Below are positions 16,450-45,085 of a DNA stretch of 64,000 bases, one piece after another. How positions within the stretch are numbered: the stretch's first letter is position 1; each line of letters starts with the position of its first letter. The notes under the pieces were generated by a model. The model was not told where the DNA came from. It made no database searches and saw nothing but the letters and a program-made list of their open reading frames with translations. Source of the stretch: a virus. Made by a program: the position numbers and the translations under genes. The DNA lies in IMG/VR virus record IMGVR_UViG_3300033141_001941, positions 1-64,000 of that record; one strand, given 5' to 3'.

Positions 16450-16496
16450 ACTCTAAACACCTCCTATCTATGAAAGCAAAAGTAAACACAACACGT

Positions 16497-26682: not shown

Positions 26683-26982
26683 TTACCGCTTCTTAGTGTA
26701 TCTGTCCCATTCCACGGAAACCCCTATTTTTGCACTCATTTCTGACAAAGCCATACTAAAAAAGTGCATATTTTCAATAGGAAGAGTTCTGACAATAACG
26801 TAATCATCTATCCTCGGGGAGACACCAATCTTGTATTCATGTTCTTCAAGTAAATAGTCTATCACCTTTCCGAAAATACGACGACTTCCAGGAAAGTATA
26901 CCTCAAAATCTTCAGGAAGGTCCTCATCCCACTCCAAATATCCTTTCTTTCCTCGCCATTCTAAACCAACCTTTCTTATCAT
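26683..26982 (-). CDS. Hypothetical protein
   Basis: 99-aa ORF, overlapping the stop of the MuF-like gene by 4 nt. Confidence 0.5.
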   Translation of the reverse strand: MIRKVGLEWRGKKGYLEWDEDLPEDFEVYFPGSRRIFGKVIDYLLEEHEYKIGVSPRIDDYVIVRTLPIENMHFFSMALSEMSAKIGVSVEWDRYTKKR

Positions 26983-30741: not shown

Positions 30742-31038
30742 CTAATTCCTGCTTATCACGCTGAACACATTAACAAAGAAAACCAACAGGTTGTATTCCC
30801 GTCGCAGCACCGTATCAACAACCGGATCAAGCCACCCATCATTGCATTTACTACATGTCAACACTGGAACACCCTTTACAATCTTACTTGCTCCCTTATA
30901 TTGCATAGTAATATCACGGAGGCTCTTATGTAACACACCACCACAGCCAAACGGACAGGAATCCCCAGACTCAACAGTATTATGTAATACGTCGCTTAAC
31001 ATGATTCCTACCACCTCGGGGCCGCCGTTTGATACCAC
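30742..31038 (-). CDS. YgiT/MqsA-type zinc-finger protein
   Basis: CPFCGGVLHKSLRDITMQYKGASKIVKGVPVLTCSKCNDGWLD matches the YgiT-type zinc-ribbon pattern. Confidence 0.5.
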   Translation of the reverse strand: MVSNGGPEVVGIMLSDVLHNTVESGDSCPFGCGGVLHKSLRDITMQYKGASKIVKGVPVLTCSKCNDGWLDPVVDTVLRREYNLLVFFVNVFSVISRN

Positions 31039-31399
31039 ACTTCTTTACTCGATTCAGAATGGTAATAGTAGACACATCAAACATGGCTGCTAATTCAAAC
31101 GTGAAAGTAGTTGGATAAATCGTCTTCCACATTTCCTTCTCACTGGAAAAACCGTTTTCAACAGCAACTCGATCCCAGAATGAATCTCTATACCGCCCAT
31201 AATTGCCGCGCCGTAGAGACAACCCACAACGCCGCATCCGGCTCCTGATTGTGACCAAAGAGTACCCAAATAAATCAGCCAACTCAGCTACACAAATACT
31301 ACCAAACACAGTATACCATAATTGACGCTCACTGACAAAGCCCAAATCCCGCGCGTGGCTATCCCACCTATCATCAGCTTCCGCCGTTCTGCCCCTCAT
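30980..31399 (-). CDS. Tandem-HTH DNA-binding protein (two ~60-aa repeats)
   Basis: An internal repeat is present: GFVSERQLWYTVFG...ELADLFGYSLVTIRSRMRRCGL versus GFSSEKEMWKTIYP...ELAAMFDVSTITILNRVKKCGI. Confidence 0.5.
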   Translation of the reverse strand: MRGRTAEADDRWDSHARDLGFVSERQLWYTVFGSICVAELADLFGYSLVTIRSRMRRCGLSLRRGNYGRYRDSFWDRVAVENGFSSEKEMWKTIYPTTFTFELAAMFDVSTITILNRVKKCGIKRRPRGGRNHVKRRIT

Positions 31400-32058
31400 A
31401 TTATAAGCCGATAAACCTCAAACGCTTCAGCAAAACGCGTTCTCACAAAAGACCCGTGAGTAATAGCTTGCGCTCTAACCAAATCGTTAATTATGATATC
31501 CGGCCTGCGCTTACTTTGTGATTCGTACTTCTCAAGAGCGGATACTTTCGTATCAAGCACATCATCACTCAGCCGCACAAACATAGTAGGAGCAAACTCT
31601 GTTGTATTGCCTGGAACTTCGTAACCAAAAACGCTGCTATGCCGAAAAGCGCGCATGGCTTCATCATGAATAACTCTATGATCCTGATGAATATCCCGAG
31701 CACAAGGAACAAAAACCACATCAGGAGCAAACTTGTTCTTCAGCTCTACCATCATATCCAATATCTCTTGTCTCTTTTCTGTAAACCTACGCACAGTAAA
31801 AGCGTCAATTACAGCCACATCAGATATACCAAGCTCAGAAAAAGCCGCGTAACACTCATCAACAAGTGTTCTGGAGTCAAAGCCAAAACCCTGCGGTAAA
31901 TTCTGCCACGCATTACAAAAAGCTATCGCTTTCACCTTCGCTCTATATATCTGCGCCACATGCAGCGTACCACCACAACCAAACTCTGCATCGTCCGTAT
32001 GAGCAGACAACGCCAAAACACGCTTACTACTCCAGCTCCAAAACGACTTATTCATCAC
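31396..32058 (-). CDS. PIG-L / LmbE-family N-deacetylase
   Basis: VLALSAHTDDAEFGCGGTL is the family signature (AHPDDxxxGxGG type). There is a later HQDH motif. Confidence 0.75.
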   Translation of the reverse strand: MMNKSFWSWSSKRVLALSAHTDDAEFGCGGTLHVAQIYRAKVKAIAFCNAWQNLPQGFGFDSRTLVDECYAAFSELGISDVAVIDAFTVRRFTEKRQEILDMMVELKNKFAPDVVFVPCARDIHQDHRVIHDEAMRAFRHSSVFGYEVPGNTTEFAPTMFVRLSDDVLDTKVSALEKYESQSKRRPDIIINDLVRAQAITHGSFVRTRFAEAFEVYRLII

Positions 32059-32594
32059 TTCACCCGCTTAGCCGGAATACCCACGTAAATACCAGGTGTA
32101 GACGTAGATTTGGTAACCACAGCTCCAGAGCCGACAACTGTACCAGCGCACAGCCCAACACCAGGGTTTATTATGGCTCCAGCTCCAATGTAACAGTTTG
32201 CCCCTATCACGCACGGAGCATGTTTCCCCTTAGCTGTTTCATGCAACAGCAAAGCGTGTGGCCCGATAAAGCTACTATTCCCGATCACCACACCAGGGCT
32301 TATAGTAGCTCTACACTTTATGATCACCCGATCATCAATAAGACAATCCTTTCCAGTGCGAACGTAGCTACCAATGTAGCAATCATCTCCAATACGAGTT
32401 CCCTCCCACAAATAGACAAAGTTCTTCACAACGGTCCGTTTGCCTATCACCACACCACGCCCAACAATAGAACACTTCCCAACCGTACCCATAGTATTAC
32501 CTACATCATCGCTTTGCATACTACCACCTCTCATCCCAAGTCTTAATCCATTTGGCAGGTGAACCAACATACACACCAGAAATAGCAGCATCAT
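32055..32594 (-). CDS. Left-handed beta-helix (hexapeptide-repeat) acyl/acetyltransferase, NeuD/PglD-like
   Basis: Repeated [LIV]G-x4 hexapeptides run throughout (IGDDCYIGSYV...IGNSSFIGPHA...IGANCYIGAGAII). The C-terminal GIPAKRV ending is also present. Confidence 0.75.
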   Translation of the reverse strand: MMLLFLVCMLVHLPNGLRLGMRGGSMQSDDVGNTMGTVGKCSIVGRGVVIGKRTVVKNFVYLWEGTRIGDDCYIGSYVRTGKDCLIDDRVIIKCRATISPGVVIGNSSFIGPHALLLHETAKGKHAPCVIGANCYIGAGAIINPGVGLCAGTVVGSGAVVTKSTSTPGIYVGIPAKRVK

Positions 32595-33297
32595 CAGTCA
32601 TAACAGCACCAGCTCCAATCATACACCAATCACATATCTTAACATGCGGCAAAATTATGGCTCCCATACCGATAAAGCAGTTGCAACCAATAACTGCGCT
32701 CCCACCGATGTTTGCTCCAGAAGCAACAATAGTCCTATCACCAATGCGAACGTTGTGCCCAACATTACAATTACTCCCTATGTGTACATCGTCACCAATA
32801 GTTGTAAAGTCAAAAACGGCTCTATGTATCACAGTATTGAGCCCAATTCTGCACCGCCTGCCAAACTCCACTCCACCAATGTGCTCCATAGCTACTACGT
32901 CACCTGTCATCTTACTCTTTACAATCTTCAGCCCAGCACCGATGAATACAGACCCTTCAGAATAATAAATGCCACGTACTTCGGGACTTCTTTTAGTAGC
33001 AACATCATTGTGAAACTGCACAAACTCAAATTCCGCATCTATAGACTCATATGAATAAAACCCCACATGAAAATCTCTACACATATTATCGAACTCAGAC
33101 AGCGGCGGGTGCACAACAAGCAACGGCATACTTGGCGCAACAACACGAGTACCTCTTACGAGCGAGACAAACGACTTTTCATTCTTAACGAGAACCACAG
33201 ATTTAGGAATGGGATTTTTGATGGAAGATGTAGCAAAATCTAATCTAAACTTCTCCACACACTTACGTATCTCACCGCTCACCCCTGATCCCTCCAC
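32521..33297 (-). CDS. Hexapeptide-repeat acyltransferase with N-terminal extension (LpxD-like architecture)
   Basis: IGDDVHIGSNCNVGHNVRIGDRTIVASGANIGGSAVIGCNCFIGMGAIILPHVKI are LbH repeats. Confidence 0.7.
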   Translation of the reverse strand: MEGSGVSGEIRKCVEKFRLDFATSSIKNPIPKSVVLVKNEKSFVSLVRGTRVVAPSMPLLVVHPPLSEFDNMCRDFHVGFYSYESIDAEFEFVQFHNDVATKRSPEVRGIYYSEGSVFIGAGLKIVKSKMTGDVVAMEHIGGVEFGRRCRIGLNTVIHRAVFDFTTIGDDVHIGSNCNVGHNVRIGDRTIVASGANIGGSAVIGCNCFIGMGAIILPHVKICDWCMIGAGAVMTDDAAISGVYVGSPAKWIKTWDERW

Positions 33298-33500
33298 TCG
33301 CTGCCCCGCACAACTTTGTCTTTCTCAAAGTCAAATAACTCCCTAATACACCAGTCAAGAGCGTCTACAACCGCTTCAGTTATAGCAAACTCAAACATCT
33401 TCTCAATATCTGCTCGTTCCTGATCGGTCAAAGATTTGCGTTTGTCCAACTCATCAGCAAATTCCCGCCGTGCAACGTGAACAAGCTTACTAATCAGCAC
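33279..33500 (-). CDS. Small hypothetical protein
   Basis: The track ORF is 33279..33581. The likely start is the GTG at 33500, preceded by AAGGAGGTG. Confidence 0.45.
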   Translation of the reverse strand: MLISKLVHVARREFADELDKRKSLTDQERADIEKMFEFAITEAVVDALDWCIRELFDFEKDKVVRGSEWRDQG

Positions 33501-33777
33501 TAGTATCACCTCCTTGATCTTCCTGCATCTCTTCCAAACTGATTTCATGCACACCAGACGCCCCACCACGTAACCGCGCAATCTCCTCGTTGCACTTCTT
33601 CACTATACGTTGCCTTACAACAACTGCTCTATGCCCCAACCCGCAAAACATACTTGGTGCAGCATTCACTATAGTATCAACAGACCCATCCCAATCATCT
33701 TTATCATACCTGTCAATCAGTTCCCTTAATAACACCCCACAAATAAGTCCAAATTCTTCCTGAGTAAACGAAATCAC
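33490..33777 (-). CDS. Small hypothetical protein
   Basis: 95-aa ORF. Confidence 0.45.
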   Translation of the reverse strand: MISFTQEEFGLICGVLLRELIDRYDKDDWDGSVDTIVNAAPSMFCGLGHRAVVVRQRIVKKCNEEIARLRGGASGVHEISLEEMQEDQGGDTSAD

Positions 33778-33784
33778 AACCTCT

Positions 33785-34000
33785 TCACCACCTTTCCGCC
33801 GTTATGACACCATCCCACTCCATCCAGTATTTCACATTTGGCCCTTCCATTATACACCATGGCGGCGGCTCAGTATAAAGTGTTATAACAGACGGAGAAA
33901 GAGACTCCACCCGCAGCAAAACGATAACACACGCAAAAACTGCAAAACAAAACACCTTAATCGCCTTCAACAGCCAAACCAAACGGCACATACCCATCAA
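33785..34000 (-). CDS. Small membrane protein
   Basis: 71 aa with the hydrophobic segment LLKAIKVFCFAVFACVIVLL. Confidence 0.4.
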   Translation of the reverse strand: MMGMCRLVWLLKAIKVFCFAVFACVIVLLRVESLSPSVITLYTEPPPWCIMEGPNVKYWMEWDGVITAERW

Positions 34001-34814
34001 TTATATCTTTCCAATGATCGACTACATCCGGGTGTACTGCATCGTGCTCCGTAGACTGTAATCTTCTTTTTGCTTCTTTCTGCACCCACTTCCATGTGCT
34101 TCTTGTAATAGACATAAACATATTCCGATACTGCGGATAAAGCAAACACTCGTAGTTCAGCAGTCTAAGTGGCTTCCCATTATAACTAGAATCCCAACCA
34201 TCTAAAAACCACCAGTGAACAATACTGGCCTGAAATCCTGACAGCCCGCCTTGTGGAGACCGTTCGACTGCCCAAGCTGCTGCAACAGCCGCCGCAGCAA
34301 TAGCATGAACAATTGTTCCATAATCATGCTTATAATCCTCGGTCAACTCCCTAATAAACTCCGGAAGTTGCTCAACGGTCATATTCTTTGCACGTTTGTA
34401 CCACTCCTTATGAACACCATCTGCCTCAGTGATCTTCTTCATACACCCCCCCCTTTTTTTCAAACCGCTTATAGCAGCAATTATTTCCGGTATCGTATGC
34501 TGTGGTAAGCCATTACCAGAACCGACACTTATAGAATCTATTACTAACTCATTAGAATCGTCGTCCGCACAAGTATCCATACAAGTTATGCAATTACTAG
34601 TAGTTCCAGTTTCATCAGCGGTTTTCACACGTTTTACAAAGTATTGCATAAAAGAGTCGGTTGGTTTGTCATAGATACGCACTTTTCTGCAACCATCAGT
34701 ATAACCCGTAACCGACACAACAACGTCCTTTTCCACCGCCACCCCATCGTTTACAATTACAAACGGAAAAAGACCTAATAACGGTAAACGCTTTAAAAAC
34801 TGCCGCCTATTCAT
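33957..34814 (-). CDS. Hypothetical protein with twin-arginine (Tat)-like signal and an internal A7G8 homopolymer tract
   Basis: The likely start is at 34814 (GGAGGTG SD; ATGAATAG overlap with the upstream stop). The N-terminus is MNRRQFLKRLPLLGLFPFVIV (RRxFLK consensus). The tract GAAAAAAAGGGGGGGG lies at 34446-34460. Confidence 0.5.
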   Translation of the reverse strand: MNRRQFLKRLPLLGLFPFVIVNDGVAVEKDVVVSVTGYTDGCRKVRIYDKPTDSFMQYFVKRVKTADETGTTSNCITCMDTCADDDSNELVIDSISVGSGNGLPQHTIPEIIAAISGLKKRGGCMKKITEADGVHKEWYKRAKNMTVEQLPEFIRELTEDYKHDYGTIVHAIAAAAVAAAWAVERSPQGGLSGFQASIVHWWFLDGWDSSYNGKPLRLLNYECLLYPQYRNMFMSITRSTWKWVQKEAKRRLQSTEHDAVHPDVVDHWKDIIDGYVPFGLAVEGD

Positions 34815-35157
34815 TTTTATACACCTCCAAGTATACCGGCAAACACCTCTTTCTTGCTTTCCTGAGTATATCAAAAGTACCACGACTTTTACCGTCCCAC
34901 ACAACTATTAAAGCATCTGCAAACTTCAACATCTCAGCATTCCTAATAAAGCCAGCAGCACGACCATATGTGTTCCAGTCTGCCGGGAAGCGCGATAATT
35001 CCACACCATTTATCTTTGCCCACAACTCCCCCAAACGATCCACACCCTTAGCCCCACCGGAAACAACCTCTGTTACATTGAATCCGGAGTTTATAACAGC
35101 TTTTTCTACAATACTATAATCAGTAATCGCTCTGGAACCAGCTATTATTACTCGCAT
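34807..35157 (-). CDS. DUF2493-like SLOG-domain protein
   Basis: MRVIIAGSRAITDY...VVSGGAKGVDRLGELWA...FPADWNTYGRAAGFIRNAEML...VVWDGKSRGT matches the DUF2493/SLOG pattern as I remember it. Confidence 0.6.
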   Translation of the reverse strand: MRVIIAGSRAITDYSIVEKAVINSGFNVTEVVSGGAKGVDRLGELWAKINGVELSRFPADWNTYGRAAGFIRNAEMLKFADALIVVWDGKSRGTFDILRKARKRCLPVYLEVYKNE

Positions 35158-35519
35158 TACTTACTCACGCACTCCTCCTCAAATGAAATATTAGCCACCA
35201 CACGCTCAAATAACTTCACAAGATGTTTTTCGATATACTCTCGATGTACAGCGCACACCCGAACCAAAGTCTCCCCCGCATCATCAAAAGCACAAGCACA
35301 CTGAACATTTCTGTCCTTTACAAGACCTGCTGCATATCCAGCTTTCCAACCCCTAATAAACTCGTCACCTTTGATCTTATGCAGTCGTAATATAGCAGCA
35401 TTCAAAAACTCTGCTTCAGAATAAGTAGAAACTTCCCCAAACCCTTTAACCCAATCGCCGGGCTTAAGCCCAAGAGGTTTAGCCTTCTTATCAAAAATAT
35501 CGTAAATGCGCTTACTCAT
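35157..35519 (-). CDS. Hypothetical protein
   Basis: 120-aa ORF with ATGA-type coupling. Confidence 0.5.
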   Translation of the reverse strand: MSKRIYDIFDKKAKPLGLKPGDWVKGFGEVSTYSEAEFLNAAILRLHKIKGDEFIRGWKAGYAAGLVKDRNVQCACAFDDAGETLVRVCAVHREYIEKHLVKLFERVVANISFEEECVSK

Positions 35520-35522
35520 AAC

Positions 35523-35834
35523 TTACCCACACATCTTATAGCCGTGTGCAGTACCATCGAGCGCCCCAAAGTGCCTATCTGCTCCTATCCAAAGGGCGTT
35601 TAGGCTCTCATACTGCTTAGCGATATACTCCCGAAACTTACAACAAATCTTATAAACAATCAAATAGATCATAAAACAAAAGCACCGCACGCAAAAGTAA
35701 AGTGCTAGCAACCTAATGCCCAGCACATCTACAAAAATAACCGCCCACAAACAAACAGCGAGGCAGAACGTCAGAATAAAAATAACAAGGCAACAAAACA
35801 GTAAAAACAGAAACCACTCTCTATATCTATTCAT
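35523..35834 (-). CDS. Small multi-pass membrane protein
   Basis: ATG at 35834. The sequence is MNRYREWFLFLLFCCLVIFILTFCLAVCLWAVIFVDVLGIRLLALYFCVRCFCFMIYLIVY... The C-terminus ALWIGADRHFGALDG echoes VIWLGADRHFAAIDD in the PhoD-like ORF. Confidence 0.5.
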   Translation of the reverse strand: MNRYREWFLFLLFCCLVIFILTFCLAVCLWAVIFVDVLGIRLLALYFCVRCFCFMIYLIVYKICCKFREYIAKQYESLNALWIGADRHFGALDGTAHGYKMCG

Positions 35835-35858
35835 GACAACCAACCTTTACCAGCACGA

Positions 35859-35948
35859 CTACAAAAATAACTGCCCATAAACAACTAGAATAAAAAGAGC
35901 AAAGTAACAAAACAGTAAAAATAGAAACCGCTTTTCACGCCTATTCAT
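35859..35948 (-). pseudogene. Truncated tandem duplicate of the N-terminus of the membrane protein (29 codons)
   Basis: My translation is MNRREKRFLFLLFCYFALFILVVYGQLFL*. The DNA segment 35851-35955 is a diverged copy of 35721-35850. Confidence 0.35.
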
Positions 35949-36231
35949 GACAACACCCTCCAAAGATAAAGTCTCTAGCCATCTTCTCACCTTCAGTAAG
36001 TAATTTGCGAACCTCTCGAACACAATCAGGACACAGTGTTATGTCTTTGCTCCCAAAACCAGGACGCAAAATATTATACCACCACAGAGCACGTGCGTTT
36101 GCTAATCGGCGTATTTCATCGGTGCACAACACACTCACTGCGTCAGATATAGTACGAAAGCAACCAGCCCCATAAACCGTTTTTACAGCTACTTTGCCAC
36201 ACCTGGTGCATGTTATTTTTATCTCAATCAT
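35941..36231 (-). CDS. Zinc-ribbon hypothetical protein
   Basis: 96 aa with CTRCGK ... CPDC pairs. Confidence 0.5.
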   Translation of the reverse strand: MIEIKITCTRCGKVAVKTVYGAGCFRTISDAVSVLCTDEIRRLANARALWWYNILRPGFGSKDITLCPDCVREVRKLLTEGEKMARDFIFGGCCHE

Positions 36232-36580
36232 ATGTCACCCACTAATAAGCGAATCATCTTATGTAGACATACGGTAGGTCGGTTTCTGTATCTATCCACC
36301 AAACTCAAACGCCCGACATCCCATGCCCATCTGCTCCCGCCATGGTCAAAAGCAGACTACCGCAAGTTTACGTCATCGTCTTCCACTAATTTTCTAAGAA
36401 CTGGATCCATTATATAAGTTTTATTACTGGTAAAGTCCTACCACCATTTCTTGTCACCACAAGGAGCATCCTCAATTCCAGCCGCACGTAGGTGCCGCCC
36501 GATGCGGAGTATACCGTCTAGCTCAAGGCCGTCGCGTTGCAAGGCTTTAACGAACGGTTTTAGAGTTTCTTCCTACTTTT

Positions 36581-36805
36581 TCATACCTCTTCCTCGCAGA
36601 TACTATAACACACCCAACATGGTTCATCGTCTACATTGAACATGGTCCCATGAACATTGCAGCGCCACAAACTCCCAAAGATGTGAACCCAGTTGTTGGC
36701 CTTTAGTTGCTCAAAGCCTGGTACTAGAGCACACTTGTAAAGCGTTGTACCGTCTCCAAACCACTCGCTTCGGAAATGCTTGCAGCCAAAGCATGTGTTA
36801 TTCAT
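36581..36805 (-). CDS. Cys-rich small hypothetical protein
   Basis: 74 aa with CFGC ... CWVC pairs. Confidence 0.45.
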   Translation of the reverse strand: MNNTCFGCKHFRSEWFGDGTTLYKCALVPGFEQLKANNWVHIFGSLWRCNVHGTMFNVDDEPCWVCYSICEEEV

Positions 36806-37502
36806 ACTTCACCACCGCCTGCACAAGCTGAAGCGTTGAACGTTGAAGCGCGCCTGTAGTAGAATAATAGACAGAAACACCACCTAACAACTCCCAACCG
36901 TCCTTGAGGCGTTTTCTGATTTCCATACACAGCTGTTCTGGAGCTTCAATCAAGACGTCATAATCAACCACTTTACGCTGTGGTCCATAGTAAGGCTTAT
37001 GATGCCAAGTGCCAACATCATCTAGAAATGTATGCTTTTGTGAATCCACACTCCTAACAAAGGAACATGGCATAACTCCACGTAAGGGGTTTGCCTCAGA
37101 TTGCTCATCCTCAGTCACTTCAGCAACACGTACAGGCAAAACACCTAACTGAGTCTTTTTAAGCTCATAATTAACTTGTCCGTAATATAGAAATACTCTC
37201 CACGCATACGAATCATGATTGCTATACGGAACAGAACTCCAGTAACTAGTAGATAAAATATTATCTATTCCAACATCATCCCGGACAGCAGGCATACACT
37301 TTGAGTAATCCAAAAGAGAAAACAGCTCAGCAACAGTTGGCAACCTAAATCCACCACCTATTAAATACTTACAAGCACTTAAAGCATTTATCCAAGGCAA
37401 CCTACCAAAATAGTTAGCATCAACCAACCACTCCAAACCAGTCTTTTCATCTATCCAGGTTTTCACGCAAAAGCCTCCCAACAACCAAAAAGTGACATTC
37501 AA
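36798..37502 (-). CDS. DUF1566 (Lcl C-terminal-like) domain protein with DUF1737-like tail
   Basis: TGLEWLVD...GGGFRLPTVAELFSL...YWSSVPYSNHDSYAWRVFLYYGQV is the DUF1566 pattern. The C-terminus RKRLKDGWELLGGVSVYY...LVQAVV resembles DUF1737. Confidence 0.6.
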   Translation of the reverse strand: MNVTFWLLGGFCVKTWIDEKTGLEWLVDANYFGRLPWINALSACKYLIGGGFRLPTVAELFSLLDYSKCMPAVRDDVGIDNILSTSYWSSVPYSNHDSYAWRVFLYYGQVNYELKKTQLGVLPVRVAEVTEDEQSEANPLRGVMPCSFVRSVDSQKHTFLDDVGTWHHKPYYGPQRKVVDYDVLIEAPEQLCMEIRKRLKDGWELLGGVSVYYSTTGALQRSTLQLVQAVVKYE

Positions 37503-37539
37503 TTATTCACAGTATACCATATAGCTCCGTGTTCGCAGA

Positions 37540-38109
37540 TCAAATAATAACTTCTCCAAAGTCCTTATACGCCGGCGGGAGATCAACAACGCATAACCGC
37601 CTATACTCCGACAGCTTAGCAACCACCGACCTATGGTAGCTTTCCTGCACACATACTTTCCACCAGTGCCACTGCACAAACAAATAATCCACCATATCCA
37701 TAGCACCAGTCTCAATCATATGCTCTATAATAGCATACTCAGCGCCTTCTATATTCATCTTTATGAATAATTTGTCTTCAGATGAGAACACACGCTTCAA
37801 CCAGCTCGCAAAGTCTATGCACTTCACAGCTACCGGGCGGTCGTAATTTACTCTTCCAGTTATCTTACCCTGCACCAATGTACTCCCATCGTCCGCAGCA
37901 GTACTCAAATAAATGGGCATCACACCATCAATCACCCACGCCGCCCGCTCATGCAGAATACACCACTCAGGATAGTTAGCCGTACTTATGTACTTAACCA
38001 ATGGCTCAAACGAATGTACTTCACACTTGCCGTCTTTGTCATACTTCTCACGCCACAACCTAACCGAACTGCCATTATGTCCACCCAAATCAATAAAAGC
38101 ACACTTCAT
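37540..38109 (-). CDS. FkbM-family methyltransferase
   Basis: FIDLGGHNGSSV ... HSFEP ... FIKMNIEGAEYAIIEHM is the Methyltransf_21/FkbM signature. Confidence 0.7.
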   Translation of the reverse strand: MKCAFIDLGGHNGSSVRLWREKYDKDGKCEVHSFEPLVKYISTANYPEWCILHERAAWVIDGVMPIYLSTAADDGSTLVQGKITGRVNYDRPVAVKCIDFASWLKRVFSSEDKLFIKMNIEGAEYAIIEHMIETGAMDMVDYLFVQWHWWKVCVQESYHRSVVAKLSEYRRLCVVDLPPAYKDFGEVII

Positions 38110-38112
38110 AAA

Positions 38113-38997
38113 CTATAGCTCCATTATGTATCTACGCAACGTCTGAAACCTCGCCTCCAGCCCATGATTCGCCCGCACAAACCTGCGCGCTCTCCTACGC
38201 ATGGCAGCCACAATGTCATCGTTCCTTGGCAAAACAATATTTTCAACAACATCTTTCCACGAATTATCAGTAATGGGAAAATAATGCTCAAACTTCCGCA
38301 ACCCAACCGCTTCCATATCAGCACACGGTTTCACCAATACCAGCGTCCCGGCAGCCATCGCCTCAAAAATCTTTGCTACGACCATACCAAATACGCTACA
38401 ATCTGTTATCAGAGCCAAATACTGATACAAAAGTTGCGCGTAATCGTCCCCTATAGCAAATCGGCTATGCCGGTAGTCAATCAGCGGGTGCCCCGCATCA
38501 GCAATGCTAGCTCTAAGCGGGTACACTACAGGGTTTATCGCACCAGACAACAGCACACGCCTTCTGGGAGCTGGATTCATACCAAACGAGTACCGCTTAT
38601 CAGTAGCAAAAAAGAATGGAAAGTATCTGAACTTAGGCTGAAGATGCGGGAATAGCTGCAAGAAGTGTTCTTTAACAGGAGATAGGATTAAGTCCGCTCT
38701 TTCAAACATCGCAGCTCTATGTTCCCGGCATCTTTCGTTACCGTAACACTGCACTTCTCGTGTATATACAATAAGACGAACGTTGGAAGGTAGATCAACA
38801 AACCGATACACAGGATAGTCCAGAAAATTATGATGTGGAACAGCATAAGCAATAACAACGTCATACCCAGTAAGTACCGGCCAATCCGTGTACTTGATAT
38901 GAAATCCAAGATCATCTCTAATCCTCCTAAACAAAAACTTATAGTTGTCCGTATGCCTACCAATAAAAAACTGCGGCAGTACAATAACCCCTCGCAT
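38113..38997 (-). CDS. CgeB-like / group-1-like glycosyltransferase
   Basis: The likely start is at 38997 (GGGAGGGG SD). The C-terminal FGMVVAKIFEAMAAGTLVLV resembles the Glyco_trans_1_2 (CgeB) motif. Confidence 0.5.
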   Translation of the reverse strand: MRGVIVLPQFFIGRHTDNYKFLFRRIRDDLGFHIKYTDWPVLTGYDVVIAYAVPHHNFLDYPVYRFVDLPSNVRLIVYTREVQCYGNERCREHRAAMFERADLILSPVKEHFLQLFPHLQPKFRYFPFFFATDKRYSFGMNPAPRRRVLLSGAINPVVYPLRASIADAGHPLIDYRHSRFAIGDDYAQLLYQYLALITDCSVFGMVVAKIFEAMAAGTLVLVKPCADMEAVGLRKFEHYFPITDNSWKDVVENIVLPRNDDIVAAMRRRARRFVRANHGLEARFQTLRRYIMEL

Positions 38998-39020
38998 TTT
39001 ACCCCTCCCGTGCAACACTG

Positions 39021-39407
39021 CTACTTTTTAGCTGCTAACACGTGCTCCAAAACACGTATTACATTATGACAAGCACAATCTATTTCTTCTACACCCAGCA
39101 CATAGCGACACTCAGCAATATATCTAAGCGGATAAAGAAGTATCTCCAGCACTTCATGAAGCGCCGTCTTACGCAGCTCGGCAGTAGTCGGAACACTTAC
39201 ACGAAAGCTGCCCCAATCCTCACACAGAAAAACGTCAGCCATCCTACCATCATGATTAAAAGATACTTCTGCATAACCGTCATCCATAGGCTTCAAGAAA
39301 TACCGCACTTCCCAATTATACAACCCAAGTACATCAAGCCACCGCTTGCACTCACGTTTGAAAAACTCAAACTGCTTCTGAGTAACCTGCCCACTCTGCT
39401 TAGCCAT
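39021..39407 (-). CDS. Hypothetical protein
   Basis: 128 aa with AGGAGGTGG SD. ALHEVLEIL is not a true HExxH motif. Confidence 0.5.
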   Translation of the reverse strand: MAKQSGQVTQKQFEFFKRECKRWLDVLGLYNWEVRYFLKPMDDGYAEVSFNHDGRMADVFLCEDWGSFRVSVPTTAELRKTALHEVLEILLYPLRYIAECRYVLGVEEIDCACHNVIRVLEHVLAAKK

Positions 39408-39564
39408 ACCACCTCCTGTTTCTCCAGTCCCTTATAGCTACAACAACCCAACACACGGCCATAATCCAAACCACTGCTAACACAAGAGAAACCGCAAACC
39501 TATCCAGACCAAAAACCACCGGTGTAGCCAGCCAAACGTCAAAAGCGTCAAACAGCTTCGTCAT
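39400..39564 (-). CDS. Small membrane protein (54 aa, below the track cut-off)
   Basis: My translation is MTKLFDAFDVWLATPVVFGLDRFAVSLVLAVVWIMAVCWVVVAIRDWRNRRWYG. ATGA overlap with the upstream stop. It ends overlapping the next start. Confidence 0.4.
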   Translation of the reverse strand: MTKLFDAFDVWLATPVVFGLDRFAVSLVLAVVWIMAVCWVVVAIRDWRNRRWYG

Positions 39565-39875
39565 AATGTTTCCTTCATCATAGCTCTAAGCAGAATCAGG
39601 TAGTTTATGGAGTCAATGATCTTCTCGTCCCAAACACTAATATCAACTGGACGCTGCCCAAGAGCGCCGTGAATCAAATCATATACGGATACTATGTGCT
39701 TTGCCAACATCCCACCAAGTGCTTCCGCCGGAGTGCACCGCTGCAAATCGGCGGCCTGTTTAAAGTTATACAACCGATCGTCTGAAGAAGCATACTCTCT
39801 AGCTTTCACGATCAGCACTTTTCGTATGATATCAAAAGTATCTTCAACTATCTTGTCAAATTCATCTACAGTCAA
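39561..39875 (-). CDS. DUF1599-like protein (nucleotide-modification-associated helical domain)
   Basis: TTG start with AAGGAG SD. KAREYASSDDRLYNFKQAADL...AKHIVSVYDLI resembles DUF1599 as I remember it. Confidence 0.4.
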   Translation of the reverse strand: MTVDEFDKIVEDTFDIIRKVLIVKAREYASSDDRLYNFKQAADLQRCTPAEALGGMLAKHIVSVYDLIHGALGQRPVDISVWDEKIIDSINYLILLRAMMKETL

Positions 39876-39935
39876 CGTCTATCTCCTTTTGCTTCGCTTA
39901 CCCTTTTTACACGAGGGCAACGTCGGATACTTCCG

Positions 39936-40103
39936 TCAAACAGCTTTACGTACTTTTGCCTTCTCAGCGGAAGTACCAAACTGCGCCACACGAGCCAACG
40001 CAGCAACAGCATGACTTCTGTCATGAATCGGATACCGCCTACCAGGGAGGGCAAAGTTGCTCGACTTAATCCGCTTCCTACCCTTTGTCGTCAAAGTAGC
40101 CAT
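39936..40103 (-). CDS. Small conserved-looking basic protein (55 aa, below the track cut-off)
   Basis: My translation is MATLTTKGRKRIKSSNFALPGRRYPIHDRSHAVAALARVAQFGTSAEKAKVRKAV. TAATG overlap with the upstream gene. The FALPxxRxYPIxDxxH motif recurs in small phage proteins. Confidence 0.5.
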   Translation of the reverse strand: MATLTTKGRKRIKSSNFALPGRRYPIHDRSHAVAALARVAQFGTSAEKAKVRKAV

Positions 40104-40903
40104 TACAATTCACCTCCTTCGGTCTTTACTCCAAGCTTCATCCTTCCCACCCGTTTATTAAATTCGCGCAGTAGATCCGTACGCTTGAACTTGATATGCA
40201 ATGAGCCCTTCTTATACCACTTAAAGCAAAAGTATTGTGTCTCACATTCCCACTTTTTCTCCTTAATGGCTTGCTTTATGGCCGTAACAGCATTATTTGG
40301 AGCTTTTGCAGCGCCCTTGCCGTCCAAGAGATGAAAGACATTATCAAGAATCTGTATGTTTTCTTCCCCGTGGCCGTGAAGCCTGACAAAACCATAACTT
40401 GTATCAATCACAAAGTCCTTAATAACTTTTTGGCTTATCTCAAACCTACTCGCACGATTGGTTTTGTATTCATCCCACGCGCCGGGCTGAAGCCACTGAC
40501 ATGTTTCTTCCGCCATTTCGTCAAATAGATGCTCCAGGTTGTCATAAATGTTTTTACAAAAACTTAAAATCGTCACTTCGGACGGCTCCGGAACGTCTCC
40601 TTCCTCTATTTGCTTTTCCAGTTTCCTTTTTTTGGCGGTCGGCATAAATGCCGGGAGTTCCAGTAATGATAAGATACGATACCAACAAGCTTTTTTCATC
40701 TCCTTCTTAATATCATCTGCACTCCACATATCAAACTTATACGGAATAAAAGACGAAACATATTGCTCAGGCGTGACAAACGCCATCTTCAATAACTTCT
40801 TTGCTTCGCTTATCTCCGCAAACGCATTGTCGATCTTCCGACACGCTGTCTCATATGCCGCAGCCATGGCTTTAGCTGTTGGTCTTGTAACAAGCGCATA
40901 CAT
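40103..40903 (-). CDS. DUF4942-like protein
   Basis: 266 aa. The C-terminus ...FKWYKKGSLHIKFKRTDLLREFN resembles the DUF4942 C-terminal signature, which is often methyltransferase-associated. Confidence 0.45.
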   Translation of the reverse strand: MYALVTRPTAKAMAAAYETACRKIDNAFAEISEAKKLLKMAFVTPEQYVSSFIPYKFDMWSADDIKKEMKKACWYRILSLLELPAFMPTAKKRKLEKQIEEGDVPEPSEVTILSFCKNIYDNLEHLFDEMAEETCQWLQPGAWDEYKTNRASRFEISQKVIKDFVIDTSYGFVRLHGHGEENIQILDNVFHLLDGKGAAKAPNNAVTAIKQAIKEKKWECETQYFCFKWYKKGSLHIKFKRTDLLREFNKRVGRMKLGVKTEGGEL

Positions 40904-41001
40904 AACTAAACAATCCCGTTGTAGAATAAATAACCAGCCGATCCGCCGTAACCGACACGGTGGGACCAGCTGGCCGTCCCCTACCCTCTAATAGAGTAGT
41001 T

Positions 41002-41853
41002 TTATGCAGAGTGGGGACGCTTAAAACAAGAAGTATATTCGTGCATCAGCTCACCAAAATGCTTTGCTTCCTGTCTCAGATAAAAATCTGTACAACCAGC
41101 AAACCGACTACATGACCGCTTCGTAACACTACAGCTGTGTCTTCCAAGCTCATAGTGCCCACGTTCGATAAGCTTATGAAACGCCCCAATCTCTCCATGC
41201 TCCTCAGTAGGAAAATCAACAAACTCTCTTATCCGCACCCACCACTCGTCAAAACGCAAACACAACTCATCATACGGAACAACCAGCACATGCTCCTTGC
41301 AACTATTCAAAATGCTCTTACATGCAGCAACATCAGGCAACAACTCATTGTACAGATTAACAGGAGTCAACTTCCCCAATCTCGGTTTCCACGCATTACT
41401 ACCAACCTTAAGCTTGAGCCTATTATAACACGAAATGTAAATATCTCTGGGGTCACGATACATGAGCAGTATCTTAAAACCGTGGTCCTTAACAAACGGA
41501 AACGTACTTGTGCTGATATAATTAAACCAACCAGTAAGACGAATCTCCTTCACACCAACTTGCTGTATCTTACCAACAATAGCATTTACAACATCACCGG
41601 TATACTTCAACCAGCTATACCGCTGATATTTTCTCCTGTATTCTACAACAGCTTCGCTTACATCAACACCATATCCCTCTTGGAGCATCCGACACGACAA
41701 ATCAGTAAGCAAAAAAGTATTTCTGTGAAACCACGGCTCATGAAAAACAAAAGACTCAGGCGGGTGTGTCAGCAACTCTTGAACGAGCGTTGTACCAGTC
41801 CGCATGAGTCCGAATACCAAGACAAACGGTCTCTTCTTAGCTTCTTCACCCAT
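41002..41853 (-). CDS. Sulfotransferase (PAPS-dependent family)
   Basis: FVLVFGLMRTGTTLVQELL is 5'-PSB-like (PKxGTT type). LLMYRDPRDIYIS is a 3'-PB-like RDPRD motif. Confidence 0.7.
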   Translation of the reverse strand: MGEEAKKRPFVLVFGLMRTGTTLVQELLTHPPESFVFHEPWFHRNTFLLTDLSCRMLQEGYGVDVSEAVVEYRRKYQRYSWLKYTGDVVNAIVGKIQQVGVKEIRLTGWFNYISTSTFPFVKDHGFKILLMYRDPRDIYISCYNRLKLKVGSNAWKPRLGKLTPVNLYNELLPDVAACKSILNSCKEHVLVVPYDELCLRFDEWWVRIREFVDFPTEEHGEIGAFHKLIERGHYELGRHSCSVTKRSCSRFAGCTDFYLRQEAKHFGELMHEYTSCFKRPHSA

Positions 41854-42787
41854 CCCCCAACACCTCCAATACCTGCTCTATAACTTTATCGAAGTCGTAC
41901 CGCTCGACAATGTACTCCCTATATGCTTCTGGAGTGTACTCAGCAGAAAAGAGCGCGTGCAGCTCATCAAACGTGTTCCACACCCACTTCTTATCATATA
42001 CTTCTTCAGCTCCAGGGAAGTTGTGAATCAGCGGCTTACAACCGCACAGCATTCCCTCCATCAACGACAAATTCTGAGACTCCCATGGGGACGTACAAAT
42101 AACACACTCCTTGTCTTTTAGAAATTCAGCTATATCCTCCACCTTTCCGTACATCTTCACCTTATCGGACAAACCAAGCCGAATAAGCATATGCTGAATG
42201 TAATAGTCGAATCGCAGCTCTTGAACAGCTCCAGCCCAATGAAGCTCAACATCCTCACCAACAGATAGCAAATGATGAAACGCATGTAAGAGCAACATTG
42301 GGCCTTTCTTGTGGTTTATATTCCCAACATGAGCAATCGTGCCGGGATTTTTCTCCGTGCTCAATTGGAACTTGCATGTATTCAAGCCATTTGGCACCAC
42401 AACCGTCTCCCTTACGCTGAGCATGGACGAACAAAGTGCCTGTATATGATTTGACACAAACACAACAACGTCCACCACAGGCCAATTGAGCCCCGTATAC
42501 AACCCAACTAACGCCTCATAACTATGACACCGCACAATTACGCGCTTATCACGCAGCAACCCTTCGGCTTTCTTGGTTACAGCAATGGTCAGCTCATTTG
42601 CCCACTCAAACCAAATAACGTCTGCCCACTTTATTGCAGTAGTCACAACATCTGAGTCAACAGAAAAAACTCTCCTTATACGCAGCTCCGTATTACGTAA
42701 AAGATGATCACAAATCGGAGCTATAAACGTAGTCAAGTTCGGACTACATATAAAAGCAATCTTCTTACCGGAGTCAACAAACCTCAT
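41846..42787 (-). CDS. Group-1 (GT4-like) glycosyltransferase
   Basis: ...VICTSPWESQNLSLMEGMLCGCKPLIHNFPGAEEV is the E-x7-E type GT1/GT4 C-terminal motif. Confidence 0.75.
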   Translation of the reverse strand: MRFVDSGKKIAFICSPNLTTFIAPICDHLLRNTELRIRRVFSVDSDVVTTAIKWADVIWFEWANELTIAVTKKAEGLLRDKRVIVRCHSYEALVGLYTGLNWPVVDVVVFVSNHIQALCSSMLSVRETVVVPNGLNTCKFQLSTEKNPGTIAHVGNINHKKGPMLLLHAFHHLLSVGEDVELHWAGAVQELRFDYYIQHMLIRLGLSDKVKMYGKVEDIAEFLKDKECVICTSPWESQNLSLMEGMLCGCKPLIHNFPGAEEVYDKKWVWNTFDELHALFSAEYTPEAYREYIVERYDFDKVIEQVLEVLGDG

Positions 42788-42972
42788 ATCTCAACCCTTC
42801 CTTTCCTTCCTTTCTAGATAAACCCTCCCGTGCTCCAAAGCTGCCACCGACGCCCGGCTTCCTTTCCAGGAGAAATAGCGACCACCCCAAACGTTTTCGA
42901 GAAAGCCTTGGTATACCCGGACTGCGCCAGAAAGCCCGTCGGAAAGGAGGCGTTTGGGGTAACCCAGAACAT

Positions 42973-43179
42973 TTACTGCACATCACTTCCAATACTAACA
43001 GGTCGAAGCAGTACATCACCACGCTTCACCGCACCAATTGCTCCACCGCTGTCAACGATAGCAACCACCTCATATCTTATGCAACTAATCTGAAGCTGCA
43101 TCCCAACACGAAGCCGAATAAACATGTCTGCTGGCTTTCCCTCATCCTGAACCTGCTTATAACCAAGACTATCAGCCAT
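42973..43179 (-). CDS. Small hypothetical protein
   Basis: The likely start is MADSLGYK at 43179, preceded by GGAAGGAGAGGGG. Confidence 0.45.
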   Translation of the reverse strand: MADSLGYKQVQDEGKPADMFIRLRVGMQLQISCIRYEVVAIVDSGGAIGAVKRGDVLLRPVSIGSDVQ

Positions 43180-43534
43180 CACCCCTCTCCTTCCTGCTCT
43201 CAGCAAGCAACTTTTCCACGAGCGCCCTCCCACGTGGAGTCATCATACCAAAGCGTTTCTCAATAGCAGCGCACCCAACATCAGTAGTACACCACGCCTT
43301 AATATCATCAAACAGCTCCCCACAAGTACGACTACCGTTAAACAACGCAACTTGCACACTTACACAATCCATGCAGACAGCAAACCTGTGAAGACGATCA
43401 TCGCGCTTTACAACAACAGACTCATAACTTACTCCAGGAGACAACTCCACCCCACACTCAACACACGAGACCGGGGTGTCAGCTACTTCCTCAAAAGAGA
43501 CACGAACGATCCTGTCAAAATCACGCGCGCGCAT
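43172..43534 (-). CDS. Cys-rich hypothetical protein
   Basis: 120-aa ORF abutting the portal stop. Confidence 0.5.
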   Translation of the reverse strand: MRARDFDRIVRVSFEEVADTPVSCVECGVELSPGVSYESVVVKRDDRLHRFAVCMDCVSVQVALFNGSRTCGELFDDIKAWCTTDVGCAAIEKRFGMMTPRGRALVEKLLAESRKERGDG

Positions 43535-45085
43535 TCACTTTACAAACTCTTCCTCACCAGCTCCAACAAAGCCAGCGGCAATCGCTCCAGCTCCACCCAC
43601 ACCTTCTCGTTTATCTTGCTGAAGCATAGCAAGGTAATCATTGAAATCGAACTCATCACTCACTATACCACGTCGCACAAACTCCTCGAATAAAATCTGT
43701 CGTGGTAGAGCACCAGCGTCGTAAGCATCCACAAGAACCTTGGAGTCCATATCCTTCAGCCAACTAGCAAAATCTGTATTTACAGTCACAGACCCAGCTT
43801 GAGGCTCCTCATCATCAGATATGTATTTTGCTGTTGTCTTCAAGCAGCTATTCAAAAAGTCTTGAAATGACAGCGCCCATCCCCGCAACGCGCTGTCGTT
43901 TTCGCTCTTACTAATGGCCCGCTCAGTAGCTACCACAGTCCCGCTCTTCGGCATCATGTATGTAAGGCCAAACATAGCCATTTGATTTTCAAGATCCTTT
44001 AAATCCTGCCTACCAGCATCGACTCCTTTTCCACTGTGCTCCACTACCTTCAGATCACCATCTGGACTCTCAGACTTTATGAGCTGATTGTATCCAATCA
44101 CAATGTCTTCATCTTCCTCAACACCAAGCATCTTACCAAAGTAGGTAATCAGCCGAGCATAATGAAGTATATTACGCTGGTCGCTACTCGATTGCCAGTG
44201 CGCCAGATTAAGATCAGCCAACCCCATAAGCGGCGGCGTAGCAGTCATCTCAGACATCTTCTCACCAGTCATGAAGACATGAAACGGTATAAAGTCTAAA
44301 GATGTCTCTCCCTCCTTTTCCAAGATCCACTCCACCTCACCGTCGTCGTTTATGATCTTCCGATACAGCGCAAACCTTCCGGGTTCGAGAACACGGATGC
44401 GCTCCACAGTTCTGCTGCCGAACCGTCCTACTTCTTCTTTTCCGGTTTCGAGAATCCTAAGCTGAACAAGAACAGAACGCCCGTTTACTTTGCGTGTTCT
44501 CCAACCAATCACGTCTTTACTGCGTACAAGAGTCCAATACGGTCTCCAGCCCTTTTTCTTGTCTACAGCTTTCGTATACGGCAGCCAGACGGGCGGCGGC
44601 TTCACAACGTTGGGAGGCAAATCAGAATAATCTTCAAGATACTGCTTAGCTCCGTTGTCAGTTACCCTAATCCGCACCTCCGGATAATCAACGAGCACAC
44701 CAGACACCCCTTCAGCTAAAGCGTAGTAAAAGACGTCTTGCCCAAAACGGGTGATGTCTCTACCCTCCAGATCAATGTCTGTCTCACACCACTCTTTTAT
44801 GTCGTTGGGAGTATCATCGCTTAACGTAATGCTGCGACTAAAGACTTCTCCAACCAGCTTTTGCACAGTGCGCTTATAAGCGCCAAGTAAAAATGATCTC
44901 TTTAACCGCGCCTTATACGCAGACGTAGTTTCAGCGTCTTCTTTCGGGAGAAATCTCTCAGCAGCATCACGCATTGCTCTTGTACCACCGAGCAAAGCAA
45001 GCGGTAGATCAAGCACATCCATGTACTCGTTATACTCGTCTAATGGTACTTCAACCTTGTCAGCGGGATCTACATTATCAGCCAT
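43535..45085 (-). CDS. Portal protein (probable)
   Basis: 516 aa with GGAGG SD. It is the first large gene after TerL. No diagnostic motif was recognised, so the call rests on position and size. Confidence 0.6.
   Translation of the reverse strand: MADNVDPADKVEVPLDEYNEYMDVLDLPLALLGGTRAMRDAAERFLPKEDAETTSAYKARLKRSFLLGAYKRTVQKLVGEVFSRSITLSDDTPNDIKEWCETDIDLEGRDITRFGQDVFYYALAEGVSGVLVDYPEVRIRVTDNGAKQYLEDYSDLPPNVVKPPPVWLPYTKAVDKKKGWRPYWTLVRSKDVIGWRTRKVNGRSVLVQLRILETGKEEVGRFGSRTVERIRVLEPGRFALYRKIINDDGEVEWILEKEGETSLDFIPFHVFMTGEKMSEMTATPPLMGLADLNLAHWQSSSDQRNILHYARLITYFGKMLGVEEDEDIVIGYNQLIKSESPDGDLKVVEHSGKGVDAGRQDLKDLENQMAMFGLTYMMPKSGTVVATERAISKSENDSALRGWALSFQDFLNSCLKTTAKYISDDEEPQAGSVTVNTDFASWLKDMDSKVLVDAYDAGALPRQILFEEFVRRGIVSDEFDFNDYLAMLQQDKREGVGGAGAIAAGFVGAGEEEFVK

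Follow-up and report, generated by a model that had tools for sequence, protein, structure and literature searches.

We propose that a gene island carried by an uncultured tailed phage encodes a cytoplasmic protein O-glycosylation system of the flagellin type, recruited to the late structural operon, where it would modify proteins of the virion, most likely those of the capsid, the tail tube or both; to this reading we give an even chance. The island spans positions 30742–43534 of a 64,000-nucleotide stretch of viral DNA (the window) from IMG/VR record IMGVR_UViG_3300033141_001941, which forms part of the 83,229-bp JGI metagenome contig 3300033148, Ga0366832_1000313 (record coordinate = window coordinate + 7402). 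Related and homologous loci compared with the window are denoted by L-numbers. We favour glycosylation of the virion because both of the glycosyltransferase families concerned are linked to flagellin, no membrane export or Gtr protein was found in the island, the genome appears to be of virulent type, and the genes are embedded in head and tail modules.

The first-pass annotation had placed the island between the portal and MuF genes and had described these two as normally adjacent, and both statements were borne out. The portal gene (DUF4055; 43535–45085, minus strand; Pfam, E = 1.5e-31) forms the upstream boundary and the gene for the 1252-aa MuF head-morphogenesis protein (26979–30737, minus strand; Phage_Mu_F, 8.5e-09) the downstream boundary. 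These limits are exact, and all genes between them lie on the minus strand. In the distant isolates PA_LZ02 and Xp12, as in the metagenomic relative L009, no gene separates portal from MuF, which indicates that the split in the window is real. Co-orientation and tight packing were also as described, with 16 of the 26 gene junctions overlapping or no more than 3 nt apart; the estimate of about 30 coupled open reading frames (ORFs) is replaced by 27 genes in the gene calls of the source contig. The island has the same GC content as its flanks. Its single large non-coding gap, 349 bp at 36232–36580, could hold an internal promoter or mark a place where the island halves recombined; scans of the window, this gap included, returned no Rfam family and no tRNA. 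Promoter-like and terminator-like sites in consensus scans were no more frequent than in shuffled sequence, and such scans thus give no operon boundaries.

The conserved anchor gene of the locus encodes a GT4-type retaining glycosyltransferase of 313 aa (41846–42787, minus strand; Glycos_transf_1 PF00534, 1e-17, and PF13692, 1e-14, both above cut-off), hereafter GT4, which is assigned by Pfam to the GT-B fold type with a Glycos_transf_1 C-terminal domain. Its EX7E motif (E236-SQNLSLM-E244) lies inside an invariant SPWESQN..ME block, and both glutamates are invariant in two alignments of the family (A2 and A3). Proteins with the invariant SPWESQN block were encoded in 35 IMG/VR loci and in 379 of 512 pattern-matched stretches of JGI metagenome contigs. 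The gene occupies the same position in L006, L008, L011, L012, L026, L028 and L117/L118, across contigs of 33–45% GC, and it has diverged roughly in step with the portal (38–45% identity for GT4, 41–56% for the portal), which argues for long retention and not for a recently acquired moron. Neither GT4 nor the sulfotransferase described below (tblastn) nor the whole island (megablast) matched any of 50,697 INPHARED phage records, and no close portal relatives were found in IMG/VR.

Comparison with these relatives alters the picture of a single insertion wedged into the head genes. The most similar locus, L006 (portal 56% identical), also has an island at this junction, in which six orthologues keep the gene order of the window: GT4 (45% identity), the sulfotransferase (36%), a CgeB-like glycosyltransferase (45%), two hexapeptide-repeat acyltransferases (Hex1, 40%; Hex2, 55%) and a PIG-L deacetylase (40%). 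The middle of the L006 island holds an epimerase/dehydratase, a GFO-type oxidoreductase, an FMN-reductase-like protein and an ATP-grasp enzyme in place of the DUF4942, FkbM, Lcl_C and YAcAr proteins of the window. Shorter arrangements occur elsewhere: large terminase (TerL)-portal-GT4-sulfotransferase in L012 (GC 33%), portal-GT4-sulfotransferase-MuF-scaffold-major capsid protein in L026, portal-Hex-GT4-sulfotransferase-MuF in L028, GT4-sulfotransferase-MuF in L117/118, and portal-GT4-MuF with a protein of about 205 aa after GT4 in L008 and L011. Thus GT4, with or without the sulfotransferase, is kept across the lineage, the block of two hexapeptide transferases and PIG-L is common to the window and L006, and the middle varies. 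In L010 (ENA ERZ27256770; portal 45% identical) more than 10 kb of unrelated small ORFs lie downstream of the portal (11447–21446), which marks this position as a general cargo hotspot in the lineage; dATP/dGTP pyrophosphohydrolase-like and NADAR-like genes are among that cargo. In PA_LZ02 (Pamexvirus) and Xp12, non-structural genes lie between TerL and the portal. On these comparisons the junction is a hotspot in which GT4, often paired with the sulfotransferase, is a long-standing resident, and the 12.8-kb island is a lineage-specific elaboration of this core rather than a single insertion.

The strongest pointer to function comes from the genes with which GT4 associates. Linkage was counted over 48 loci with enough flanking sequence to be informative, and a homologue of the GT2-type glycosyltransferase of the window's tail module (GT2-TPR) was encoded in 32 of them, fused to GT4 in 17, adjacent in 8 and within 2–8 kb in 7. 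Pfam scans revealed GT4::GT2 fusions, a methyltransferase::GT4::GT2::CgeB-like protein (L023), a GT4::GT2::CgeB-like protein (L051), TPR::GT4::methyltransferase proteins, some with a second methyltransferase domain (L064, L072, L115 and L128), and GT2::GT2::TPR proteins; the methyltransferase domains fused to GT4 (L023, L064, L072, L115 and L128) belong to families other than FkbM. Hexapeptide-repeat acyltransferases of one cluster are present in 18 GT4 loci. Together, these fusions, adjacencies and co-occurrences bind GT4, the CgeB-like glycosyltransferase, a methyltransferase, an acetyltransferase and the distant GT2-TPR into one system.

This system is found in two habitats. In phages, the GT4 family always lies inside structural modules, and it does so in at least three phage groups. 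Group A, to which the window belongs, has the order portal-GT4-MuF. The other two have no structural genes in common with group A that BLAST can detect. In group B (e.g. L027) the order is TerL, a portal of a different PHROG family, MuF, GT4, scaffold and major head protein, with GT2-TPR 6–8 kb downstream in four loci. In group C (e.g. L029) a neck protein is followed by a GT4::GT2 fusion, a 338-aa protein and the tape-measure protein, a placement that mirrors the window, where GT2-TPR follows the tail terminator. In bacteria, on contigs of up to 441 kb, homologues of GT4 (32–40% identity, E 1e-55 to 1e-75) are TPR-GT4-methyltransferase proteins whose genes adjoin flagellin genes in 14 loci, often together with a GT2-TPR gene (L115:7940–12109, L079:2568–9590, L064:2978–10141 and L072:1413–12241 are among them); in one further locus the gene lies beside flgE/F/G. 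In L072 the GT4 protein reaches 1855 aa, as it also includes F420-dehydrogenase-like and polysaccharide pyruvyl-transferase domains. Neither the window nor any phage-context locus yielded a flagellin or flagellar gene. In a neighbour-joining tree of the GT4 domain, a rough tree without support values, phage clades interleave with the flagellin-linked sequences. The bacterial pair is apparently uncharacterised in its own right, and if our reading is true it is flagged as a set of flagellin-glycosylation enzymes worth study.

Turning to the partner enzyme, the first-pass annotation had noted a GT2-TPR glycosyltransferase in the tail module, and the assignment was upheld by profile search (12107–13351, minus strand, 414 aa; Glycos_transf_2, 4e-17). 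The gene lies between the tail terminator and the tail-tube region, with Neck1 also a neighbour. The protein carries a DXD motif (D91-A-D93), and its best solved relatives are GmaR (3.5e-24, over residues 12–200) and SunS (1e-18). The C-terminal half has a weak TPR_14 match at residues 247–284 (0.0058, below cut-off), and homologues such as that in L064 match TPR strongly. A search with this protein gave no mycobacteriophage match. Given the linkage described above, GT2-TPR is probably the functional partner of the island GT4.

The PAPS-type (3'-phosphoadenosine 5'-phosphosulfate-type) sulfotransferase (41002–41853, minus strand, 283 aa; Sulfotransfer_3, 3e-08, and Sulfotransfer_1, 5e-08, above cut-off) overlaps with its start the GT4 stop by 8 nt, and the pair recurs in L006, L012, L026, L028 and L117/118, so that it is present in at least six contigs. 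The 5'-phosphosulfate-binding motif (5'-PSB; R18-T-G-T-T) and the 3'-phosphate-binding motif (3'-PB; R133-D-P-R-D) are both present, and R18, T19, G20, T22, R133, P135 and R136 are invariant in nine family members (alignment A1). In a profile alignment, the invariant residues R18, E39 and K102 pair with the arginine of PRSGTT, the first glutamate of GEETR and the lysine of NKD in TPST1, residues that we take to be the catalytic Arg, Glu and Lys of TPST; a profile search gave TPST1 at 4e-08. The AlphaFold2 model (pLDDT 83, pTM 0.86) has TPST1/2 and the CurM sulfotransferase as its top solved folds, and 38 of its 43 PDB matches at E ≤ 0.001 are named as sulfotransferases or sulfotransferase domains, the remaining five being four retinol dehydratase chains (1x8j, 1x8l, 1fml) and 3ap2_B, a TPST2 chain. 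The window protein thus has the PAPS-binding fold and both motifs in common with TPST1/2 and bacterial Sulfotransfer_3 enzymes, but it differs from TPST in that TM-scores reach only 0.43–0.55 and identity 15–20%.

The family is small, with about 110 representatives at E ≤ 1e-30 among 1.84 billion. In cellular genomes its homologues are part of polysaccharide clusters, together with a Wzx flippase, GT4s and other sulfotransferases, and not of protein-glycosylation loci. This context points to carbohydrate rather than tyrosine as the candidate acceptor, and tyrosine sulfation, which the top fold would suggest, was down-weighted for that reason. The earlier statement that no phage system was known to include a sulfotransferase was too strong, since such genes are annotated in S-SRM01, S-SCSM1, FoX4 and OM43-phage contigs, and BFVD gives sulfotransferase-fold matches in S-SCSM1, FoX4 and marine phages; what stands is that we know of no phage sulfotransferase that has been characterised. 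Genes of this kind have been listed as auxiliary genes without an assigned role (PMC10580990, PMC8290583). As far as our literature searches show, the tight coupling of this sulfotransferase family to a virion-module GT4 is new.

Among the remaining enzymes, all encoded on the minus strand, the CgeB-like glycosyltransferase (38113–38997, 294 aa; Glyco_trans_1_2, 7e-08) is followed by an FkbM-family S-adenosylmethionine-dependent methyltransferase (37540–38109, 189 aa; Methyltransf_21, 4e-06, above cut-off). Hex1 (32521–33282, 253 aa; Hexapep, 4e-20) has an LpxD-like left-handed beta-helix and LpxD as its best solved relatives (2.5e-21). Hex2 (32055–32519, 154 aa; Hexapep, 3e-21) is a PglD/QdtC/WlbB-like sugar N-acetyltransferase whose solved relatives include LpxA, PglD and QdtC. 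The PIG-L/LmbE-family N-acetylglucosaminyl deacetylase (31396–32055, 219 aa; PF02585, 1e-13; phrog_11796, 7e-22) carries the metal motif H19-T-D-D (H-x-D-D), and LmbE/BshB are its best solved relatives. Homologues of PIG-L are also encoded by the isolated Vibrio phage vB_VpS_PG28 (L136:7711–13718) and Arthrobacter phage DanielleIgnace (L137:4859–11678). Each of the enzyme calls that the first-pass annotation had made from motifs scored above Pfam's curated cut-off. Its description of the whole as a glycan-building island holds for these enzymes but not for the rest, as roughly two thirds of the 27 genes have no recognisable glycan role or link (DUF4942, YAcAr, helix-turn-helix, zinc-ribbon and small ORFs).

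The hypothesis of virion glycosylation, put forward from the window alone, has gained comparative support from the GmaR/SunS-like GT2-TPR, its linkage to GT4 and the flagellin neighbours of bacterial homologues; the acceptor, like the order of steps, the sugars, the timing of expression and the biological pay-off, is what we infer from that setting. In the proposed scheme, the island genes would be co-transcribed with the head and tail genes. GT2-TPR would recognise a folded or nascent structural protein through its C-terminal half, where the weak TPR match lies, and would attach the first sugar, most plausibly an N-acetylhexosamine (HexNAc) drawn from the UDP-sugars of the host. Extension of the glycan would then fall to the retaining GT4 and the CgeB-like glycosyltransferase. 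PIG-L would remove an N-acetyl group, after which the LpxD-like and PglD-like hexapeptide transferases would re-acylate or acetylate the sugar. Finally, FkbM would methylate the product and the sulfotransferase would add sulfate from host PAPS. The PIG-L deacetylase and the two acyltransferases fit readily into a model in which N-acetylglucosamine (GlcNAc) is added first. Possible pay-offs include shielding of the particle surface, a change in surface charge and less non-productive adsorption.

Several points weigh against virion glycosylation. Nothing convincing by way of a Ser/Thr-rich tail or acceptor motif was found in the major capsid protein or the tail tube. The phage GT4 is without the TPR domain of its bacterial relatives, and its closest solved relatives are TarM (which acts on teichoic acid), BshA and PglH. 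The polysaccharide setting of the cellular sulfotransferase homologues belongs on the same side. In the Vibrio and Arthrobacter phages, the PIG-L homologues have glycosyltransferase, ParB-like and methyltransferase genes close by. Neighbourhoods of this type have been linked to sugar hypermodification of DNA, a hint that these phages may de-N-acetylate DNA-linked HexNAc. Moron-type cargo, moreover, is commonly tolerated in late operons too, and the enzymes could act on host flagellin instead.

Remodelling of host envelope glycans (lipopolysaccharide O-antigen, capsule or teichoic acid) on the cytoplasmic face, leading to seroconversion or superinfection exclusion, is unlikely. It would accommodate the sulfotransferase homologues in polysaccharide clusters, the resemblance of GT4 to TarM, BshA and PglH and of Hex1 to LpxD, and the epimerase/dehydratase, GFO-type oxidoreductase and ATP-grasp enzyme of L006, which are typical of nucleotide-sugar pathways. 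However, neither Pfam nor a hydrophobicity scan of the island detected a GtrA/GtrB/GtrC, Oac, Wzx or Wzy-type protein or any other flippase or polymerase; all island enzymes are soluble, no multi-transmembrane protein was found (by a Kyte-Doolittle window scan, not a dedicated transmembrane predictor), and the only hydrophobic products are three tiny ones of 54, 70 and 103 aa. No lysogeny genes were seen. The cellular context of GT4 and GT2-TPR is flagellin, not polysaccharide export, and a single GT4 is kept in the structural modules of phage groups that have no other BLAST-detectable genes in common.

The same flagellin context could be taken to mean that a host surface protein is glycosylated instead of the virion, flagellin being the most obvious candidate and pilin or S-layer protein the others, with an effect such as keeping competing flagellotropic phages from adsorbing, or progeny from adsorbing to cell debris. 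The bacterial homologues of both glycosyltransferases are flagellin-linked, and GmaR, the closest solved relative of GT2-TPR, is a flagellin O-GlcNAc transferase. We nevertheless consider this quite unlikely: phage-context loci contain no flagellin gene, the enzymes are encoded in the head and tail modules of three phage groups, and the genome looks virulent, so that in a lytic cycle enzymes made late would alter only flagellin that is both made and exported late.

A third view dispenses with a single pathway and treats the junction as a permissive hotspot that has gathered unrelated morons, some of them sugar enzymes by chance. The unrelated ORFs of L010, the non-structural genes between TerL and portal in Pamexvirus and Xp12, and the window-specific DUF4942, YAcAr, Lcl_C and roughly 14 small ORFs all fit such a hotspot, yet we give it a slim chance, in view of the six enzymes kept in the same order in L006, the GT4-sulfotransferase pair in at least six contigs and the domain fusions that join GT4, GT2, the CgeB-like glycosyltransferase and methyltransferases.

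Phage DNA hypermodification, in which glycosylated bases evade restriction, is highly improbable: there are phage glycosyltransferases, related to lipopolysaccharide and teichoic-acid enzymes, that have come to act on DNA (bioRxiv 10.1101/2023.12.21.572611), the PIG-L neighbourhoods noted above fit such a role, and the window encodes a Dam-type methyltransferase, a DUF4942 protein and a B12/radical-SAM protein, but Pfam scans and precomputed Pfam hits covering about 81 of the 83 kb gave no thymidylate-synthase (ThyS) homologue, TET/5mYOX or ParB, where genes of the ThyS and 5mYOX types normally cluster with DNA glycosyltransferases, GT2-TPR is GmaR/SunS-like and the bacterial homologues are flagellin-linked; with ThyS and 5mYOX absent from those data, it was rejected as the principal explanation. 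A mycothiol- or bacillithiol-like small-molecule pathway built on GT4 and PIG-L was discarded, as the ligase is missing and the ties to GT2-TPR and flagellin loci are conserved; a SunS-type glycocin operon was discarded for lack of a transporter or precursor context.

The other island genes, again all on the minus strand, include three small overlapping ORFs next to the portal (42774–43534; 120, 68 and 80 aa; no Pfam match) and the gene for the 266-aa DUF4942 protein (40103–40903; Pfam, 6e-32), which has no evident glycan role and no homologue in the relatives, L006 included. Four small ORFs follow (39021–40103; 55, 104, 54 and 128 aa), of which the 54-aa product is hydrophobic. The 222-aa Lcl_C (DUF1566) and DUF1737 protein (36798–37466; Pfam, 7e-17 and 2e-07) is window-specific; the 116-aa YAcAr (SLOG-family) protein (34807–35157; Pfam, 7e-16) has no glycan link; and a 285-aa protein (33957–34814) has neither a Pfam nor a PHROG match. 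Two small ORFs lie just upstream of MuF (30742–31399), one encoding a helix-turn-helix-like protein of 139 aa and the other an MqsA-like zinc ribbon of 98 aa, both with weak Pfam matches below the curated cut-offs. Around 14 small island ORFs belong to no family.

Every gene on the contig lies on the minus strand. In order of transcription, the genome begins with a replication module encoding a DnaB-like helicase, a Dam methylase, a B12/radical-SAM protein, PolA with a uracil-DNA glycosylase (UDG)-like domain, a clamp loader, a gp32-like protein, RecA, a PDDEXK nuclease and SbcCD-like proteins. The genome looks to be of virulent type: it encodes PolA, clamp loader, RecA and gp32 itself, and no integrase or other lysogeny gene was seen among the annotated genes of the window and contig. 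The UDG-superfamily domain lies at the N-terminus of the family A DNA polymerase (55696–58293, minus strand); upstream of it (58332–61476, minus strand) are the genes for the B12-binding/radical-SAM-like protein, an unannotated 380-aa ORF (59510–60652) and the Dam-type N6-adenine methyltransferase. These genes could serve DNA modification or uracil handling unconnected to the island.

The small terminase (46915–47781, minus strand) is followed by a putative large terminase of 519 aa (45355–46914, minus strand), which has no Pfam match, 38% identity to the annotated TerL of PA_LZ02 and 55% identity to the L006 ORF in the same position. The portal is 36% identical to Pamexvirus/Xp12-like portals, its nearest isolates, and 41–56% identical to metagenomic relatives. 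On the far side of the island, the MuF gene is interrupted by an intein of about 347 aa (28929–29969, minus strand; Hint, 2e-06; C257 to N603, with C604 as the +1 residue) that carries two LAGLIDADG-like motifs and is inserted at a conserved HPxC|RC motif; the MuF homologues of L011 and PA_LZ02 are uninterrupted at this site. The C-terminal half of MuF has a winged-helix domain at residues 732–775 and an HEFGH zincin-type motif at residues 970–974 (27816–27830), which suggests a putative fused effector or protease module like those of MuF-associated polymorphic toxins.

After MuF come, on the same strand, the scaffold and major capsid protein (24308–25342) genes, two giant ORFs and the connector genes, then GT2-TPR, the tail tube (6961–8229), the tape-measure protein and distal tail and lysis genes. 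The giant ORFs (16497–23660, minus strand; 1522 and 864 aa) returned no PHROG and no Pfam family at a significant level, and they contain Ser/Thr-rich stretches of up to 52% in 25 aa; possibly, they are decoration or fibre proteins and candidate glycan acceptors. Directly after GT2-TPR, a 705-aa protein (9871–11988, minus strand) bears a Sec-type signal peptide, MKRLLLTALCFLLLAGSASGA, at its N-terminus and a weak pectate-lyase/beta-helix-like match (DUF5123), an unusual find between tail terminator and tail tube.

More broadly, we tentatively suggest, as a doubtful but possible extension, that a large set of uncultured tailed phages in at least three groups has captured bacterial flagellin O-glycosylation machinery and uses it to coat its own capsids and tails, the glycan being N-deacetylated and re-acylated, methylated and sulfated in the window's lineage. 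If so, bacterial viruses would gain their first described sulfated glycoprotein virion, and virion glycosylation would be widespread outside actinobacteriophages. Phages of other hosts would then routinely glycosylate, and here also sulfate, their particles, which would matter for adsorption, environmental stability, immune recognition and phage engineering. Such a finding would also supply a concrete evolutionary link between flagellin and virion glycosylation and a first functional context for phage sulfotransferases.

Known systems resemble the island in part. Phage clusters for DNA sugar hypermodification combine GT-A and GT-B enzymes with epimerases and secondary glycosyltransferases, sometimes near structural genes (bioRxiv 10.1101/2023.12.21.572611; PMC13326640). 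They differ in needing a ThyS homologue, or a methyltransferase and 5mYOX, to provide the acceptor base, neither of which was seen in the Pfam data for the window and contig. Giant viruses such as Megavirinae encode the glycosylation of capsids or fibrils themselves (PMC10117803). Chloroviruses are a further example. These giant viruses, like the proposed system, use their own glycosyltransferases and bacterial-like sugar-tailoring enzymes on structural components independently of host systems, but they have eukaryotic hosts, unrelated enzymes and far larger genomes.

Closer in enzyme type are GmaR and SunS. SunS is the SPbeta prophage-encoded S-glycosyltransferase of sublancin and, with ThuS, represents the glycocin S-glycosyltransferases. 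GmaR of Listeria has a glycosyltransferase domain and a TPR domain and places GlcNAc on flagellin (PMC9638930). Both share with GT2-TPR a GT2 (GT-A) catalytic domain, which in the window protein carries a DXD motif; to the TPR-type substrate-recognition region that follows this domain, the window protein has a weak match. The window protein differs from GmaR in having no anti-repressor domain, and its setting differs from the sun operon in being a phage tail module without glycocin precursor, transporter or thiol-disulfide oxidoreductase genes. In Caulobacter, the TPR domain of FlmG binds flagellin (PMC7591256). Bacterial flagellin loci of this kind are alike in mode and context, with TPR-guided glycosyltransferases that O-glycosylate a self-assembling filament protein in the cytoplasm; in contrast, the phage has no flagellin, and its GT4 has lost the TPR and methyltransferase domains.

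To our knowledge, virion glycosylation has been shown experimentally in mycobacteriophages only, where it shields particles from antibodies; methyltransferases reportedly accompany the glycosyltransferases in some of them. According to PMC12363180 and PMC12619734, which cite Freeman et al. 2023 (Cell Host Microbe), glycosylation of capsid and tail-tube subunits by the phages' own glycosyltransferases has been proposed or demonstrated in Che8, Corndog and Myrna. The likeness lies in phage-encoded glycosyltransferases that act, or in the window would act, on such subunits in the cytoplasm. The mycobacteriophage enzymes (Che8 gp110 and Corndog gp38) have no homology to GT4 (tblastn, INPHARED) or to GT2-TPR. 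Moreover, the window belongs to a different, uncultured lineage, uses flagellin-type enzyme families, adds PIG-L, two hexapeptide acyltransferases and a sulfotransferase, and has these genes embedded between portal and MuF and beside the tail terminator. The locus points to a route to virion glycosylation that is independent of that of mycobacteriophages and much more widespread, and what would be new is a set of different enzyme families with a traceable origin in flagellin glycosylation, wide occurrence in uncultured phages and the putative addition of sulfate.

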